A DNA stretch of 64,000 nt from Escherichia phage vB_EcoM_LNA2. The notes under the pieces were generated by a model, which saw only the letters and a list, made by a program, of their open reading frames with translations, had not been told where the DNA came from and did no database searches. The stretch lies in sequence record MZ311865.1, one strand, 5' to 3'. The translations under genes were made by a program, and so were the position numbers. Of the stretch, positions 8,131 through 14,597 are shown piece by piece (the stretch's first letter is position 1; each line of letters starts with the position of its first letter).

Positions 8131-8160
8131 ATAGTATCACACATCCATGTGTTTGTAAAC
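8131..8160 (-). promoter_or_regulatory. early-type promoter cassette (GTTTAC -35, TACTAT -10, hairpin around -10) inside alt 3' end
   Basis: Minus-strand reading GTTTAC-18nt-TACTAT with inverted repeat GGATG...CATCC flanking the -10, followed by GAGG RBS and ATG. Confidence 0.5.
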
Positions 8161-10247
8161 TATCCTTGGACAAATTTAAACGGAACTGATTCTAAATCCA
8201 TTAAAGATGCTAACAATTTCAAACCTTTAGGTGCACTAGTTTTTTCTACAAATGAGGCAAAAGATACCGGCTCATCTGATTCGATTTCACCAGTCATAGC
8301 AACTACCTCGCCTGTTTCCATGAGAACATCACCATCGTAAATGACAGCTTCGTCCAACTGGTCCGAGGACATGACTTCAGCTTGAATAAATTTAAGGTTG
8401 GATTCTAAACCTGCACCGGTGTCAGATGACGCATCTGTAATTTTATTTATCTGCAAGAGAATGCCTCTAGGCAAAATAATTTCTTGCTCATTAGGGTGAT
8501 TACTCAACTGTCCTGGATAAATCACGTTAACTTTATGGGCACCATCAATAGCCCATCCAACGTTAACACGGATTTGTTCTGGTGCATGCATAGCTGTTCT
8601 TACTTGACTAGGAGAAATAGTAACACCTTCGTCATTATTATCAATGTTAAGCTCTTTGCGAACTTCTTCAGGAGCAAGTCCAAGGGCAACGTTCTCTTTA
8701 AACCCGCCGAAAATAATAGGAGCTAGTGAAGTGGAAACATAGTTTCTGAAGTAGAATACCTTATTTTTAACCATTGCTTCGTAAATAGGCATTCTGATAG
8801 ACTGGGCTCTATACAACGTTAGTCCTTCAGGTAAACGGTCTCCATTTAAAAACGCCGAATCAAGACCATCAATAGCGCGTTTAACTTCATCTTCATCTGC
8901 AACATCATAAAAATCCGGTTTATAACGGCCTAACAACATATTATTGATATCGGTATACGCAGAAGAGGCATATTCGCGAATAGCTCGTTTTTCAGCAACA
9001 GAGTATTGTTTAGGGTCCCGATTCATTGTTATATTAAAGGTGCCTCTAGCCGATTCCCGTGCATAAGTATACATCACATTAGACAAGAACGCTGATTTAC
9101 GTTGTTTCCAAGTTCTTTCAGATACTTCAGCTAAAACGTCGTCGGGCAGTTGGAAATTATCACGTCTAAAATCTTCAAACCATTCGTCTTTAATAGAGTC
9201 TGCAATTTCATTTGCAGCTTCAACAAAAGCAGCTAATGCTTTAACAGATGTTGTTTTTTCAGTTTTAATTTTCTTAGCAAACTTTTCTAAAGTTGGCTTA
9301 ATAACACTACCATAAGAAACTTCATCGGCAAATCTAAAGGATTCATCAATACGATTATAAATCTTATTTTCGATATCAGCAACTAAAGTGCCTTTTGCTG
9401 TGGACGATGCTTGGGCTAGTACGATTTCATATGCTTCAGGAAGTAATTCGGCTGTAGCTGGGCCGCTAACTTCTTTAGCAGAATTTTCGTATTTCTGGAA
9501 TAACTCACCTTCTTGACGGTCAGCTTCTAAAGATTGACTTGCTGCAATAGCACGACGAGAAATTTTAGTACGAGCAATAACAGGCTTATCTTTACGTTTT
9601 TCTTCTACAGCAGCAATAGAACCAGCGATAGCCGTTTCTTTGGTGACCATTTCGCCAGTCTTTTTACTCACATAAACTTCGCCAACATCAGAATCTACTT
9701 TCGTGTACAACTCTGTGTTAATGTTAGGGATGCCTTTAATATCTTCAATGTTAGCATTTTTACGAACCATCATCACATAGGTGTGTTTACCTGTGAATTG
9801 ATACATTGCCGACAATACTTTAAAACGACCACCGGTTTTAGTAGAAACTAAACGAGCAAGAAGAGTTTGAAGTTGTTGTCCGCGTCCTTTCAATTTCTTG
9901 GTAGGGAATCGGAACAGAACTGCATCCATACGAAGAGCTTTAACCTGTTCATATACTGTATTGAAAATGGTGTTGATTGCATCAATAGGAGCAGGACCAA
10001 GGCCATTTTTCAATTCAGCGAGATTACCCTTTTCAGACAGACTCATAATAACAACATGAGCGTATTTGTCGCCAAGTTTAACTTGTTTTACAGCATCGCC
10101 TTCAGAAAGGTAAGAGAATAAGCGAACTACGATGTTTGTATCAACATCACCAATTTTCCAGACTTGTGGAACTTTAGCTTTAGGGTTCAAATTGACGACA
10201 GGAAGACTGCCTTCAGATTCAAACACTTCATTTAATTGTTCAGACAT
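8160..10247 (-). CDS. alt: Alt ADP-ribosyltransferase (head-packaged)
   Basis: 695 aa (T4 Alt 682 aa); position between gene 54 and DNA ligase as in T4. Confidence 0.85.
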   Translation of the reverse strand: MSEQLNEVFESEGSLPVVNLNPKAKVPQVWKIGDVDTNIVVRLFSYLSEGDAVKQVKLGDKYAHVVIMSLSEKGNLAELKNGLGPAPIDAINTIFNTVYEQVKALRMDAVLFRFPTKKLKGRGQQLQTLLARLVSTKTGGRFKVLSAMYQFTGKHTYVMMVRKNANIEDIKGIPNINTELYTKVDSDVGEVYVSKKTGEMVTKETAIAGSIAAVEEKRKDKPVIARTKISRRAIAASQSLEADRQEGELFQKYENSAKEVSGPATAELLPEAYEIVLAQASSTAKGTLVADIENKIYNRIDESFRFADEVSYGSVIKPTLEKFAKKIKTEKTTSVKALAAFVEAANEIADSIKDEWFEDFRRDNFQLPDDVLAEVSERTWKQRKSAFLSNVMYTYARESARGTFNITMNRDPKQYSVAEKRAIREYASSAYTDINNMLLGRYKPDFYDVADEDEVKRAIDGLDSAFLNGDRLPEGLTLYRAQSIRMPIYEAMVKNKVFYFRNYVSTSLAPIIFGGFKENVALGLAPEEVRKELNIDNNDEGVTISPSQVRTAMHAPEQIRVNVGWAIDGAHKVNVIYPGQLSNHPNEQEIILPRGILLQINKITDASSDTGAGLESNLKFIQAEVMSSDQLDEAVIYDGDVLMETGEVVAMTGEIESDEPVSFASFVEKTSAPKGLKLLASLMDLESVPFKFVQG

Positions 10248-10287
10248 AGTGTTTTCCTTTTAGTAATAATTTATATTTATGCCAAAA

Positions 10288-10303
10288 AGAGCCCGAAGGC
10301 TCT
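10288..10303 (-). terminator. UUCG-tetraloop hairpin
   Basis: AGAGCC-cgaa-GGCTCT on plus strand (UUCG loop in minus-strand RNA), just upstream of alt RBS. Confidence 0.5.
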
Positions 10304-10491
10304 TAATCCACAATCGGGAGCAAAGTACGATAAACTTCAAAATTAGGGCCTTTTTCGTACTTATCAAAATTGTCCATAAAAATATTATAGGAATCGTTAT
10401 TAGGAAAATCTAATATAATCTGAGAGCAAGAGGTGGAAACATCTCCACCATCCTTCTTAGCTACAATAACTGTTTCTAAATAAGCTTTCAT
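10303..10491 (-). CDS. hypothetical small protein
   Basis: Track ORF 10303..10512; likely start at internal Met (MKAYLETVIV...) overlapping the ligase stop. Confidence 0.35.
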   Translation of the reverse strand: MKAYLETVIVAKKDGGDVSTSCSQIILDFPNNDSYNIFMDNFDKYEKGPNFEVYRTLLPIVD

Positions 10492-11984
10492 TATAAACCT
10501 GTCTGGGACCACGGTCCAAATACGTCTTCAAATGAATCCGCTTCTGTTTTATCAAAACGGAACCCTTTAATAATTGGAAGGAAAATACCTACAGTGCCTT
10601 CACGGCCTTTAGAATGAACCCAACCATTACATTCACAATCAGCGATACGTCCGATTAATTTACCTTCACGAGCTTCGGTCATTAATCGTTCACGGTCTAA
10701 ATCATGACGCTCGTCTAAAGGAATAAGAACCTTTACACCGTCAACTGTTTTATGAGTTGTATCTTTAAACCCTGAACCACAATCGGTTGTAATACGACGA
10801 CAACGTGATACGAGTTCGACACCACCTAATTTGTTAGGGTCTTTAGAGTGTTCATAGTATCCTACAACTTCTAAAGCGATATCAATAACTTCTTTAAATT
10901 TAATTAGGTTCTTAGAGCGTTTGTTTTCCCAATATGAATCACGGTTTTTAAGGATAATACCTTCAAGACCTTGGTCAACATATTTTTTATAAACCACTTT
11001 AGCTTCGTCAAGATTACGAACTAACTGATTTTCAATTGGCTCAATTCGCTTAAAGCCTTCAGCCATATTTTCAAGAGCAGCAAAACGAACATCGTATTTC
11101 TGACCTTTAATTTTGCCATCAGAATAGACTTCATCTAAAGGAACATAGTCCCAGGCTTGAAGAACCATACCTTCCGCTTCTTTAGGAGAAATAGTCCCTT
11201 GAAGAGATTTATTTGCTAAACCATTTGAAGTGCTACGGTCTGCAACTCGTACTTCTTCGGATTCTTCATTATCACCAAATAAGAACGATAGGTCATTTCC
11301 TGAGCTCACAGCCTTTTTAATATCAAATGAATGATAAACTAATTCACCGTCGATTAAAACCCCATTAGGGTGTCTTTCACGAGCTTCTTTAGTCATTTCC
11401 ATTAGTTCATCCGCTAATAGAGTAAGACCATGGTATTCGTTACCGGCACGAGAAAAGAATTGAACGCCATCATCGCGAACTTCAGCGAAACAACGAGCAC
11501 CATCTGCCTTTAATTGGGCAAATGCAGGCCATTTAATATTTTTAGTAATCAATTTCTCATCATATGCAGATGCTAACATCTGTGGCTGCAATTGAATAAG
11601 TCCAGGCCACACCTTATTCGCGATAGACACTGAAGCACCTACTTCAAGGTCTCGCATCATTACACGACGAAGGACTTCTACATCGTCAGGTTTACCGTCA
11701 GCGATATAACCCATGAGCTCTTTAATTGCAGCATTACCAGTGAGTTTACGAGTGGCTAATGTGAACTCAATAAAATCCAACATGTCATCTAATTCAAGAA
11801 GACCATACGCTTGAGACCTTTCACCTGGTCCTGGCCATTTCTTAATATAATACTGGATACCACGTGCATATGTTAAACGATACACACGTTCAAGTAATTT
11901 GTTGTCCTTATTTTTCTTAAGGATTTCTTGTTTTGTTTTAGTAGAACCGATCGCAGCTATTTGGTTTAAAATATCTAAAATCAT
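10491..11984 (-). CDS. 30: ATP-dependent DNA ligase gp30
   Basis: 497 aa; ligase adenylation motif KADGARC (KxDG); T4 gp30-like; synteny alt-30-30.x. Confidence 0.9.
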   Translation of the reverse strand: MILDILNQIAAIGSTKTKQEILKKNKDNKLLERVYRLTYARGIQYYIKKWPGPGERSQAYGLLELDDMLDFIEFTLATRKLTGNAAIKELMGYIADGKPDDVEVLRRVMMRDLEVGASVSIANKVWPGLIQLQPQMLASAYDEKLITKNIKWPAFAQLKADGARCFAEVRDDGVQFFSRAGNEYHGLTLLADELMEMTKEARERHPNGVLIDGELVYHSFDIKKAVSSGNDLSFLFGDNEESEEVRVADRSTSNGLANKSLQGTISPKEAEGMVLQAWDYVPLDEVYSDGKIKGQKYDVRFAALENMAEGFKRIEPIENQLVRNLDEAKVVYKKYVDQGLEGIILKNRDSYWENKRSKNLIKFKEVIDIALEVVGYYEHSKDPNKLGGVELVSRCRRITTDCGSGFKDTTHKTVDGVKVLIPLDERHDLDRERLMTEAREGKLIGRIADCECNGWVHSKGREGTVGIFLPIIKGFRFDKTEADSFEDVFGPWSQTGL

Positions 11985-12250
11985 TTGATGTCCTCGATTT
12001 TGGTTACGGTTCTATTATAAGCCACTTCATCTAGAAGCGATTTCAGCGTTTTCTGATAAGTGGTAATCCATTTACCGAGCCCTTCAACATAGTATTCTGA
12101 AATGTAGATGAACCCTTGTTCAACACACTCTTTAAATATTTCTGCGTCTTTTACTGAACGAAACAATGGCCAGTCTCGAAAGAACATGTTAACGTGACCG
12201 TAGTCACGTGTGGTGTTTTTGCCATCTGTAATATCATGAACTACAAACAT
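11981..12250 (-). CDS. hypothetical protein (30.1 position)
   Basis: 89-aa ORF with ATGA overlap to ligase. Confidence 0.5.
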   Translation of the reverse strand: MFVVHDITDGKNTTRDYGHVNMFFRDWPLFRSVKDAEIFKECVEQGFIYISEYYVEGLGKWITTYQKTLKSLLDEVAYNRTVTKIEDIK

Positions 12251-12259
12251 AAGTATCCC

Positions 12260-13075
12260 TTAACAATTTATAGACCAAGTCCATTTAGACGAATCTAAAG
12301 GAAAGTTTTGAATCGTCCACCATGGCCGCATATCGGTTGGTCCTGGAGTTCGCCAGGTATACGGATTCGACGGAGCGCCAATTTGATTAGGCCATGCGCC
12401 TGGACTTGTTGCACCAGATTCTTTAAGCAAATCTGCCAATCGTTTTAAAAGGTCTTCATGATCTGAATCTGAATTATGCTTGGGTGGAACCAAACGAGAT
12501 TCAATATCATCCCACGTGTGTACACGTTGTGCAGTACGAGGAATATCATCACGTTCACCACGAGCCAACCAATAAATCGGTACATTAAGAATTTCTGCTG
12601 CATGGTCACAGTGATGAGCTAAATCGTCAACGTAACAAATCACGTTATATTTTGTTTTAGCTAGTTCAAATAATTGTTCCTTTGACGAATCGTGACCACA
12701 CATCATTACTTCAGAAAAAGCGCCTGGGAACAAAGCATTCAAATTAAATTGTCTATTCAATCGAGCATCAATTGAATCACCTAGCGCCGTCACGGCTACA
12801 AAATTATAGTCTTCTTTTAGTTTATTGATAACTCGAAGAGCATCCGAATAAGGCGCTAAGTAACGAATAAAATCAGAGCGATTATATTTTTCTATTAATT
12901 GTTTACCGAGGTTATCATCGGTATTGAATAGTTTACCAGGAGAAATAAATTTTTCGTCCTGAATCATTTTTAAAATATGTTCTAATGGAAGATTATATTT
13001 TTGGGCAAAATAAGGAAGTCCAGATTGCCAGCTTAAACATACACCATCAATATCAGTCAAAATAGTAGGCTTCAT
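12260..13075 (-). CDS. HAD-superfamily hydrolase-like protein (30.2 position)
   Basis: 271 aa; N-terminal DIDGV motif (DxDG[TV] of haloacid dehalogenase-like phosphatases). Confidence 0.6.
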   Translation of the reverse strand: MKPTILTDIDGVCLSWQSGLPYFAQKYNLPLEHILKMIQDEKFISPGKLFNTDDNLGKQLIEKYNRSDFIRYLAPYSDALRVINKLKEDYNFVAVTALGDSIDARLNRQFNLNALFPGAFSEVMMCGHDSSKEQLFELAKTKYNVICYVDDLAHHCDHAAEILNVPIYWLARGERDDIPRTAQRVHTWDDIESRLVPPKHNSDSDHEDLLKRLADLLKESGATSPGAWPNQIGAPSNPYTWRTPGPTDMRPWWTIQNFPLDSSKWTWSINC

Positions 13076-13539
13076 AAAGAGTCTCTTAATAGGTTTAACA
13101 CATCAATAAATTCAGCTTCGGTTAATATTGTATCATCTTTTGTTAGGTGGCTGGCCATGCTGTGCTTCAAAATTTTTCCTTTAGAGGCTTGTAAGGCATC
13201 GCGAAACCCCTTGTTTTGGATCGCTGCTTCAAAATATGCATTTGTATATAATTCTTTCCATGCTTCAGAGTATCTTGAAAATGGAACTCCTAACCAGAAG
13301 AGAGTCCCACTGTCCTGAGCTCTTGCGTAAGACCTTCCAGCTTGCTGTGCAGCCAATCCAGACAACCCAAATATACGTCTTTGTTGTTCAACATTTTTCA
13401 CCTTACATCCTTGGAGAAATCCTTCAAGACCTCCGAATTGAATACCATCCATAACAAAAGGCCATTGAGCAAAGTTACTTAATGCACATGATGGCCATTT
13501 GAAATTACTTCTTATTTCTAATTCAGACATCTTTAACAC
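13072..13539 (-). CDS. YbiA-like NADAR-domain protein (30.3 position)
   Basis: 155 aa; LSNFAQWPFVMDG resembles the E. coli YbiA/NADAR core motif (FSNFAAWP..VDG). Confidence 0.6.
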   Translation of the reverse strand: MLKMSELEIRSNFKWPSCALSNFAQWPFVMDGIQFGGLEGFLQGCKVKNVEQQRRIFGLSGLAAQQAGRSYARAQDSGTLFWLGVPFSRYSEAWKELYTNAYFEAAIQNKGFRDALQASKGKILKHSMASHLTKDDTILTEAEFIDVLNLLRDSL

Positions 13540-13741
13540 TTATAATTTCAACATCAGCCCAATGACCGTATCCAGGTATACGGTCTTCGATAGATAAATT
13601 TCTGTCATTTTTAGGCATTTTAATTGACGTAACGTATGGTTCTAAACGGTTTTCTGCATAATGTGGAAAAACGTCTGTTACACGATAAGTAACTTCAATC
13701 ATTTCCGTACCAAACAATTTCTGGATTAATTTATTCAACAT
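13523..13741 (-). CDS. hypothetical protein
   Basis: 72-aa ORF in compact operon. Confidence 0.4.
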   Translation of the reverse strand: MLNKLIQKLFGTEMIEVTYRVTDVFPHYAENRLEPYVTSIKMPKNDRNLSIEDRIPGYGHWADVEIISVKDV

Positions 13742-13928
13742 GTTTCAACCCTTTAATAGGAGATAACTCTTTACCCATACGTATGTCAGAAGTCCAATCA
13801 ACCCATTGAACAGCATACGCTTCATTGATAATTCCAGCGGCGGTTTTAAATTCAGGGAGAACTTTAAAAATCACCCCAGGAATTCCAACACCTTTTAATT
13901 GGACTGTTTGTGCTATTAAAAATTTCAT
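13731..13928 (-). CDS. hypothetical protein
   Basis: 65-aa ORF immediately downstream of a promoter cassette. Confidence 0.4.
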   Translation of the reverse strand: MKFLIAQTVQLKGVGIPGVIFKVLPEFKTAAGIINEAYAVQWVDWTSDIRMGKELSPIKGLKHVE

Positions 13929-13952: not shown

Positions 13953-13983
13953 ATTATACTCTAATCCGTCCTTGGATGTACAC
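13953..13983 (-). promoter_or_regulatory. early-type promoter cassette (GTGTAC -35, TATAAT -10)
   Basis: Minus-strand GTGTAC-spacer-TATAAT with CCAAGG palindrome in the spacer; -35 overlaps the stop of the 204-aa ORF. Confidence 0.5.
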
Positions 13984-14597
13984 TACTTAATGAAATTAAT
14001 TTCTACCGGATGAACAACAGGTTGAGCAGTGATATATTGAGTAATTGCTTTCATGACTAGAGCTTCAGAACCAGGATTTTTCTCAACGAATTCACGTGCT
14101 AGGTTATGAGCTTCAAGTTCACTTAGTAAACCACTTCGTTGACATCCACGGTCTTGAGTACCCTGTTCAGATAAAAAGGCGACGATGTATTTTTCATCGT
14201 CATACGGTTTAGACGGTTGAGCAAATGTTCCTTTACTTCCAAAAGGAGAGTTATGACGCCACATCACGCCGTTAGGAGTTTCAACCTTCGTATATTCGTG
14301 TGGGCCATTTTTCTTAGTTTCTTGATGTGGAACTTCGTGGACCTTAGGGTTAGGACATTCAATAAAATGCTCATCTAAATCGGTCGAGAATATTAAAGAA
14401 AAACAATTACTAAATTTACCAACACCTGCCTGATAAATTTTACCTTCAGACGTTCTAATTTCACAAACCGAGCCGGCATCAGTAACTTCTAAAACTTCAA
14501 AAGGCTCGATAAGGTCATATGAGAACATGTTTTTAAGGCGTGGAGTAATATCCCCATTTTTAAAATTCATTTTATAAAAAGTATTAACTTTAAACAT
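13983..14597 (-). CDS. hypothetical protein, 204 aa, no recognisable T4 counterpart
   Basis: ORF with GAGGA RBS, preceded by a terminator hairpin and followed by a promoter cassette. Confidence 0.55.
   Translation of the reverse strand: MFKVNTFYKMNFKNGDITPRLKNMFSYDLIEPFEVLEVTDAGSVCEIRTSEGKIYQAGVGKFSNCFSLIFSTDLDEHFIECPNPKVHEVPHQETKKNGPHEYTKVETPNGVMWRHNSPFGSKGTFAQPSKPYDDEKYIVAFLSEQGTQDRGCQRSGLLSELEAHNLAREFVEKNPGSEALVMKAITQYITAQPVVHPVEINFIK

Follow-up and report, generated by a model that had tools for sequence, protein, structure and literature searches.

The window analysed here is a stretch of 64,000 nucleotides from Escherichia phage vB_EcoM_LNA2 (MZ311865.1), and the subject of this study is a pair of adjoining genes within it, 30.3 and 30.2, which a preliminary description based on the letters and their open reading frames (ORFs) had characterized as encoding a NADAR-domain protein and a haloacid dehalogenase (HAD)-like hydrolase, respectively, and had grouped with the nearby gene for the ADP-ribosyltransferase Alt into a cluster dealing with ADP-ribose chemistry. 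ORF calling placed both ORFs on the minus strand where they had been described, and they are the named T4 genes 30.2 and 30.3, an identity that had gone unrecognized, the function of 30.3 having already been published. The 1.9-kb stretch around the two genes displays 97-98% nucleotide identity to many Tequatrovirus genomes, the top match being Escherichia phage vB_EcoM_SA79RD, and the source of the window is, judged from sequence, a T4-like coliphage (Tequatrovirus). ORF calling, family scans and comparison with annotated T4 revealed that the gene order is that of T4, with all the genes on the minus strand (Table 1). As argued below, the pair very probably represents two independent genes of the T-even early block 30.5-30.4-30.3-30.2-30.1-30, namely adfN, as gene 30.3 is now called, and a gene encoding a HAD phosphohydrolase.

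The product of gene 30.3 displays the features of a phage NADAR enzyme

The protein encoded by gene 30.3 matched Pfam family PF08010 (Phage_30_3) with E=3.8e-69 and 231 bits, against a cutoff of 36, which places the 30.3 assignment far beyond chance. Alignment with T4 gp30.3 (AdfN), which extends from residues 1-152 of one protein to residues 1-152 of the other, showed that 146 of the 152 residues (96%) are identical. The six substitutions, given from the window to T4, are K11R, S74R, E89P, I120V, M125I and H128G, none of which falls in a conserved column. The ORF listed in the preliminary description (13072..13539) is indeed a real NADAR gene, but its start had been set at a GTG (13539) three codons upstream of an ATG at position 13530. 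By comparison with T4 the ATG is the true adfN start, giving a protein of 152 residues, because T4 annotates 152 residues and the published numbering of the catalytic residues E36 and K43 fits the ATG only.

The YbiA/NADAR core motif previously noticed in this ORF corresponds to LSNFAQWPFVMDG, at residues 17-29 of AdfN, which in the family profile aligns with FSNFAAWPIKVDG of Escherichia coli YbiA. Within this motif L17, S18, N19, F20 and F25 are invariant in an alignment of 33 homologues. The conserved NADAR catalytic residues were likewise present, E36 and K43 being invariant in the 33 homologues, as is H123, which is invariant in both homologue alignments and stands where other NADAR families have a catalytic Glu/Asp. 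The C-terminal helix (residues 138-152, modelled as a helix from 138 to 151) is intact, as there is no frameshift at the C-terminus of this protein and the match to T4 is full-length.

Searches with the single gp30.3 sequence against the Pfam NADAR model, NCBIfam and the sequences of the PDB returned nothing apart from PF08010, and the link to NADAR thus needed a family profile and a fold search. The gp30.3 family profile reached YbiA (2b3w) with E=9e-4 over a region spanning the LSNF...E...K core, and one gp30.3 homologue bears both PF08010 and PF08719. An AlphaFold model of AdfN (predicted local distance difference test score 93.2) was compared with the PDB by Foldseek; the top three matches were YbiA (2b3w; E=3e-5, template modelling score 0.66), PnNADAR (8bau) and the Geobacter lovleyi NADAR protein (8bat), and the remaining matches had a probability of <=0.07. 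Every sequence and structural feature of the phage gp30.3/AdfN family that was looked for, comprising the fold, the profile match, the E36/K43/His residues and the C-terminal helix, was found, and by these features the 30.3 product is AdfN and belongs to the phage gp30.3 family within the NADAR superfamily.

The biology of the T4 protein is well documented. Gene 30.3 of T4 was renamed adfN, for anti-DarT factor NADAR, by Johannesman et al. (Nat Commun 2025, PMC11825919), who reported that T4 and T2 from which adfN had been deleted no longer plaque on DarTG1 cells. Purified AdfN strips ADP-ribose from DarT1-modified DNA, with the E36A variant serving as the catalytically inactive control in vitro, and the E36A and K43A substitutions impair counter-defence; the authors' AlphaFold model of T4 AdfN resembles DarG1, PnNADAR and YbiA (PMC11825919). 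Phage RB69 is sensitive to DarTG1 because a frameshift deletes the last 15 residues of its AdfN, the C-terminal helix thus being required, and RB69 is rescued by AdfN supplied in trans (PMC11825919). Hydrolysis of guanine-ADP-ribose by the T4 protein in vitro was reported in Toxins 2024 (PMC11125620), where phage NADARs were defined by the His that replaces the catalytic Glu/Asp. The same hydrolysis and the same His substitution are described in Toxins 2026 (PMC12945103), and the His hallmark appears also in PMC11825919. In the HIDEN-SEQ preprint T4 insertions in 30.3 were lost on DarTG1 cells. In uninfected cells the toxicity of DarT1 is not relieved by the phage NADAR (PMC11825919, PMC11125620). 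The proposal in the preliminary description that the 30.3 product reverses ADP-ribosylation of DNA bases and counters DarT has thus been demonstrated for a protein that is 96% identical (PMC11825919, PMC11125620), and from that T4 protein we infer that the allele in the window would act as a guanine-ADP-ribose glycohydrolase and protect against DarTG1.

In T4 an alternative-frame ORF, 30.3', lies inside 30.3. The equivalent frame in the window (13167..13394, minus strand) is broken by a stop at codon 35, which speaks against 30.3' as a conserved gene.

gp30.2 is predicted to be a HAD-superfamily hydrolase

The 30.2 product (gp30.2), whose N-terminus is MKPTILTDIDGV, contains a HAD core extending from residue 1 to about residue 190, with an alpha-helical C1 cap that in the model occupies residues about 12-88. 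The core is followed by a tail (about 196-271) that differs between relatives and is absent in many of them; beyond a helix at residues 203-221 the tail is Pro/Trp-rich and the model is of low confidence. Curated sequence models did not capture the protein. The best match among HAD models, to HAD_2, had E=0.019 and scored 15.5 bits where the cutoff is 23.8; the match in NCBIfam was negligible, and gp30.2 is without a Pfam or NCBIfam family assignment. Other members of the family reach only E values of about 3e-4 to 8e-3 against HAD models, and the family itself, phrog_420, is annotated as 'unknown function'. As the curated models fall below cutoff, HAD membership rests on fold and motifs. The gp30.2 model displays the Rossmannoid HAD core with high confidence and strong HAD matches. 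Moreover, D8, D10, G11 and K132 are invariant, and T96 and D150/D151 are conserved at >=90%, among 33 homologues with identities down to ~38%, and since all four HAD motifs are kept across these homologues the DxDGV sequence is more than a chance pentapeptide. By its motifs and modelled fold gp30.2 is thus a genuine HAD-superfamily hydrolase, in harmony with the earlier assignment of this ORF. It could be argued from the sub-threshold sequence matches and the lack of a Pfam or NCBIfam family that the protein is a catalytically dead HAD-like scaffold, or that the DxDG match is coincidental. The (near) invariance of the four catalytic motifs down to ~38% identity, together with the confidently predicted fold and its strong HAD matches, leaves this proposal with hardly any credibility.

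Some GenBank records name the orthologue of T4 gp30.2 'haloacid dehalogenase-like hydrolase domain-containing protein'. In HAD enzymes the Asp two residues after the nucleophile points to phosphoryl transfer and not to dehalogenase chemistry, and the presence of D10 at this position argues that gp30.2 probably catalyses phosphoryl transfer. The top Foldseek matches of the gp30.2 model are structures of the 5'(3')-deoxyribonucleotidase type (cdN/mdN), in a search that does not discriminate substrates, and six gp30.2 family members weakly match NT5C. In the weak alignment between gp30.2 and cdN the invariant W16 lies opposite the Phe of DGVLADFESGL, a residue that contacts the nucleobase in cdN/mdN. 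This favours a (deoxy)nucleotidase as a guess, and a (deoxy)nucleoside monophosphate would be the best guess for the substrate. A literature search on gp30.2 found no publication, and published T4 transposon data show the gene to be non-essential, insertions being tolerated at 72/72 sites.

Two sets of 30.2 homologues depart from the arrangement in the window. In one cluster (P0016, 302 aa) a single ORF also includes the 30.1 domain (PF11243/DUF3045), pointing to a fusion of 30.2 with 30.1 or to read-through. On marine and environmental contigs (L069-L080) the homologues are 29-37% identical, contain ~195 aa, are without the tail and have no ligase nearby. Inspection of the sequences around those in L069-L077, as opposed to a family search, identified ferredoxin-, PhoH-, MazG- and clamp-loader-like ORFs as neighbours, and these neighbourhoods provided no pointer to the substrate.

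The 30.x genes are closely packed and alt lies behind its own signals

Genes 30.5 through 30 either overlap or almost abut. The adfN stop and the 30.2 start share an ATGA, an overlap of the same kind is present at the 30.1/30 junction, and the adfN start lies inside the end of 30.4, an arrangement that implies translational coupling (Table 1). The slot of the 95-aa T4 gene 30.6 is occupied in the window by an ORF of 204 aa (13983..14597, minus strand) that belongs to phrog_17531 (unknown function); comparison with T4 shows that a gene has been replaced locally within the hyperplastic 30.x region.

The identification of alt in the preliminary description was upheld by its Pfam match and its Alt-like PHROG family. 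With regard to the further suggestion that alt shares a transcription unit region with 30.2 and 30.3, the genes do occupy a common strand, but a terminator-like hairpin and a box resembling a late promoter precede alt. The hairpin (AGAGCC-TTCG-GGCTCT, then a T run; -10.6 kcal/mol, z=-2.1), which an automatic terminator scan missed and which was found by reading the sequence, is succeeded by CATAAATATAAATT. No exact copy of the canonical T4 late promoter, TATAAATA, was found upstream of alt; however, this region aligns with the T4 hairpin and late promoter, and the box in the window matches the latter at 7/8 positions. A single transcription unit containing alt and the 30.x genes was rejected on the basis of the hairpin and the box. 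These two elements separate alt from the early 30.x genes, and alt appears to be a separate late gene. The packaging of Alt into virions fits this status.

The Alt R / S-T-S / E-x-E catalytic motifs are intact. The protein is only 42% identical to T4 Alt, whereas the products of the flanking genes are 71-96% identical to their T4 counterparts, and near-identical copies of this alt allele occur in other phages (L002, L010 and L013). Thus, strongly divergent alt alleles exist.

Table 1. Genes, junctions and functional motifs of the 30.x-alt region of the window
Feature	Position	Strand	Description
alt	8160..10247	-	Alt-type ADP-ribosyltransferase; PF03496 E=6.6e-28; phrog_802, PHROG family for Alt-like ADP-ribosyltransferase
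Terminator-like hairpin and late-promoter-like box, between alt.1 and alt	10255..10302	-	Box CATAAATA/TATAAATT
alt.1	about 10303..10512	-	
Gene 30	10491..11984	-	DNA ligase
Gene 30.1	11981..12250	-	
Gene 30.2	12260..13075	-	271 aa; HAD core and variable tail
HAD motifs II-IV	12623..12790	-	II, T96 (12788..12790); III, K132 (12680..12682); IV, D150-D151 (12623..12628)
HAD motif I, D8-I-D10-G-V	13040..13054	-	Nucleophile Asp and Asp+2 general acid/base
30.3/30.2 ATGA overlap	13072..13075	-	adfN stop overlaps 30.2 start; CTCTTTATGAAGCCT
Gene 30.3 (adfN)	13072..13530	-	152 aa; NADAR fold
AdfN C-terminal helix, residues 138-152	13075..13119	-	Intact
AdfN H123	13162..13164	-	Replaces catalytic Glu/Asp of other NADAR families
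AdfN E36 and K43	13402..13425	-	Catalytic; E36 13423..13425, K43 13402..13404
N-terminal NADAR motif LSNFAQWPFVMDG	13444..13482	-	Residues 17-29 of AdfN
30.4/30.3 overlap ATGTCTGA	13523..13530	-	adfN start inside 30.4 end; AAAGATGTCTGAATT
Gene 30.4	13523..13741	-	72 aa
Gene 30.5	13731..13928	-	

T4 tolerates insertions in 30.2 and alt on a DarTG1 host

Data S6 of the HIDEN-SEQ study compares T4 transposon insertions between an empty-vector host and a host carrying DarTG1. Only two genes were significant in this comparison, 30.3 (log2 fold change -7.25, adjusted P value 0) and 30.4 (-1.79, adjusted P value 0.014). Insertions in 30.2 (-0.12, p=0.61, 71 sites), 30.1 (-0.01, not significant) and alt (-0.01, p=0.97, 178 sites) were neutral, indicating that the HAD protein and Alt have no measurable share in the resistance of T4 to DarTG1.

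The HIDEN-SEQ transposon lacks a terminator but has stop codons in each of the three reading frames. As the stop of 30.4 lies inside the adfN start, the 30.4 signal may reflect lost coupling, and loss of translational coupling to adfN is the simpler reading of that signal. It has been reported that AdfN-T4 only partly rescues phages outside the T-even group, and a further T-even factor was proposed for full activity (PMC11825919). That such a factor is encoded in the same gene string is improbable; the candidates would be gp30.4, homologues of which were detected only in Tequatrovirus/Mosigvirus-like loci (L001, L003-L015), or a redundant, non-essential gp30.2, which is less likely than gp30.4. 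The view that gp30.2 is a required potentiator of AdfN, prompted by the ATGA overlap, was rejected on the basis of Data S6 and the synteny counts given below.

Gene 30.2 is stably linked to the ligase gene but only patchily to adfN

Viral loci were retrieved with 30.2 as the seed (79 loci, in which six-frame ORFs were scanned) and with 30.3 as the seed (also 79 loci). Among the T4-like loci that extend past 30.2, a DNA ligase match adjoins 30.2 in 65/66. In contrast, a 30.3 match was present within 6 kb of 30.2 in 35-36 of the ~66 T4-like loci, and 30.2 was nearby in only 27 of the 79 loci seeded with 30.3. The near-universal linkage to the ligase gene, set against the patchy linkage to 30.3, indicates that ligase is the stable partner of 30.2 and that adfN is a mobile accessory gene. 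Indeed, in at least 10 genomes that occur in both sets of loci the two genes lie 45-60 kb apart (examples are the pairs L022/L132 and L017/L149), from which it follows that within the Straboviridae adfN has changed its position or has been gained repeatedly. The loci with a distant adfN-like gene, all from T4-like genomes, comprise L132 (6001..6450), L110, L116, L142, L144-L146, L149, L150 and L153. In L132, the one such locus that was read, the NADAR gene is surrounded by small hypothetical ORFs, with a tRNA-like region alongside, and its neighbourhood contains nothing related to ADP-ribose. No 30.2-30.3 fusion protein was found among the homologues, the fusion with 30.1 being the only one seen for 30.2.

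NADAR genes of the gp30.3 family, ~40% identical, were also observed on jumbo-phage-sized contigs of 248-327 kb (L104, L108, L114 and L141), where no match to 30.2, ligase or alt was found near the NADAR gene.

The place of 30.2 directly upstream of the ligase gene, kept in 65/66 loci, raises the question of whether gp30.2 is a DNA-end healing phosphatase, such as a polynucleotide 3'-phosphatase, by which nicks are made ready for the ligase in the manner of the HAD-type domain of PseT/PNKP. The DxD phosphatase chemistry is intact in gp30.2, and the PNKP phosphatase domain is likewise a member of the DxDxT superfamily. C1 caps, however, are typical of HAD enzymes that act on small molecules, those that act on macromolecules usually being capless, and the model of gp30.2 includes a large helical C1 cap. 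Furthermore, its best structural matches are all small-molecule HADs, T4 already encodes PseT, and the marine 30.2 homologues occur without a ligase nearby. A role in end healing is thus unlikely.

The same counts bear on the cluster envisaged in the preliminary description, in which 30.2, 30.3 and Alt would form an ADP-ribose module, the HAD protein processing the ADP-ribose released by AdfN or phosphorylated products of its breakdown, or else potentiating AdfN. Co-translation through the ATGA start/stop overlap, the occurrence of 30.2 and 30.3 next to each other or <=~1.7 kb apart in 35 T4-like loci of distant clades, and the additional T-even factor that AdfN-T4 needs for full activity are consistent with such a module. 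There is also a conceptual precedent in other viruses, in which DUF4326 phosphatase domains are fused to NADAR or Macro. Against this, 30.2 is without 30.3 nearby in ~30 T4-like loci and 30.3 is without 30.2 nearby in 52/79, 45-60 kb separate the two genes in at least 10 genomes, no fusion was found, and a hairpin and a late-type promoter box precede alt. In addition, the target of Alt is arginine in proteins, and that of NADARs is ADP-ribose linked to bases. The neutral effect of insertions in 30.2 and alt on the DarTG1 host is the phenotypic counterpart of these observations. An ADP-ribose module, which fails on both linkage and phenotype and is largely refuted for DarTG1 resistance, is therefore very unlikely, and the cluster with Alt that was originally proposed is not supported.

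Discussion

The data favour adfN and 30.2 as independent genes that happen to be neighbours in the early block. In the mechanism that would follow, the host toxin DarT1 puts ADP-ribose on guanine of the phage DNA, and AdfN, as a minimal NADAR-fold enzyme, would cleave the N-glycosidic guanine-ADP-ribose bond; release of ADP-ribose would restore replicable DNA, such that the phage escapes the abortive-infection defence mounted by DarTG1. gp30.2, through its DxD / T / K / DD active site and helical C1 cap, would act separately as a phosphohydrolase. The adjacency of the two genes probably represents inherited synteny, with 30.2 travelling with the ligase gene and adfN occupying the slot in some lineages only, while Alt would be a separately controlled ADP-ribosyltransferase of host proteins, without a demonstrated link to adfN or 30.2.

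It should be emphasized, however, that several observations weigh against this view of the locus. The ATGA overlap shows that adfN and 30.2 are co-expressed in this lineage, and as the two genes are adjacent or close together in several clades of distant T4-like phages, a non-essential auxiliary link between them may exist. The published screen was carried out in rich medium with a single host and a single DarTG1 system, and AdfN-T4 is reported to need an additional T-even factor for full activity (PMC11825919). Finally, the allele in the window differs from T4 AdfN at six positions, albeit non-conserved ones, and its function is assigned by homology.

This study places in context a phage-borne orphan antitoxin, adfN, that enzymatically erases a bacterial defence based on DNA ADP-ribosylation. 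The function of T4 AdfN was published in 2024-2025, and the window contributes one more intact allele. It also draws attention to 30.2 as a conserved, non-essential HAD phosphatase gene that remains a neighbour of the DNA ligase gene throughout the T4-like phages. What looked like an ADP-ribose cluster is synteny only, a conclusion that guards against the misannotation of 30.2 and Alt.

With respect to known systems, gp30.2 may be compared with the 5'(3')-deoxyribonucleotidases cdN/mdN (NT5C; 2jao, 2i7d, 1mh9 and 3bwv), with which it has in common the HAD core and the helical C1 cap. In both cdN and gp30.2 motif I reads D-x-D-G-V and is followed, at equal spacing, by an aromatic residue and SGL (DGVLADFESGL in the former and DGVCLSWQSGL in the latter). 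The closer relative, T4 gp30.2, is 71% identical overall and nearly identical over residues 1-190, and its gene has the same place upstream of 30.1 and the ligase gene, whereas the tail (about 196-271) has little sequence in common with that of T4.

The AdfN of the window is closest to T4 AdfN, which is encoded at the same locus, has the same length and retains E36, K43, H123, the C-terminal helix and the overlaps with 30.4 and 30.2; the 96% identity leaves six substitutions, each outside the conserved columns. With DarG1 (8bat), PnNADAR (8bau) and YbiA (2b3w) it has in common the YbiA/NADAR fold and the N-terminal LSNF...E...K catalytic core, and these three proteins also hydrolyse guanine-ADP-ribose in vitro (PMC11125620, PMC12945103). 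The phage enzyme, however, is a bare NADAR core, an N-terminal extension being a feature of DarG1, and its catalytic residue is a His, in contrast to the Asp of DarG1 and the Glu of YbiA and other NADARs. Unlike DarG1, phage AdfN is the product of an orphan gene with no toxin adjoining it.

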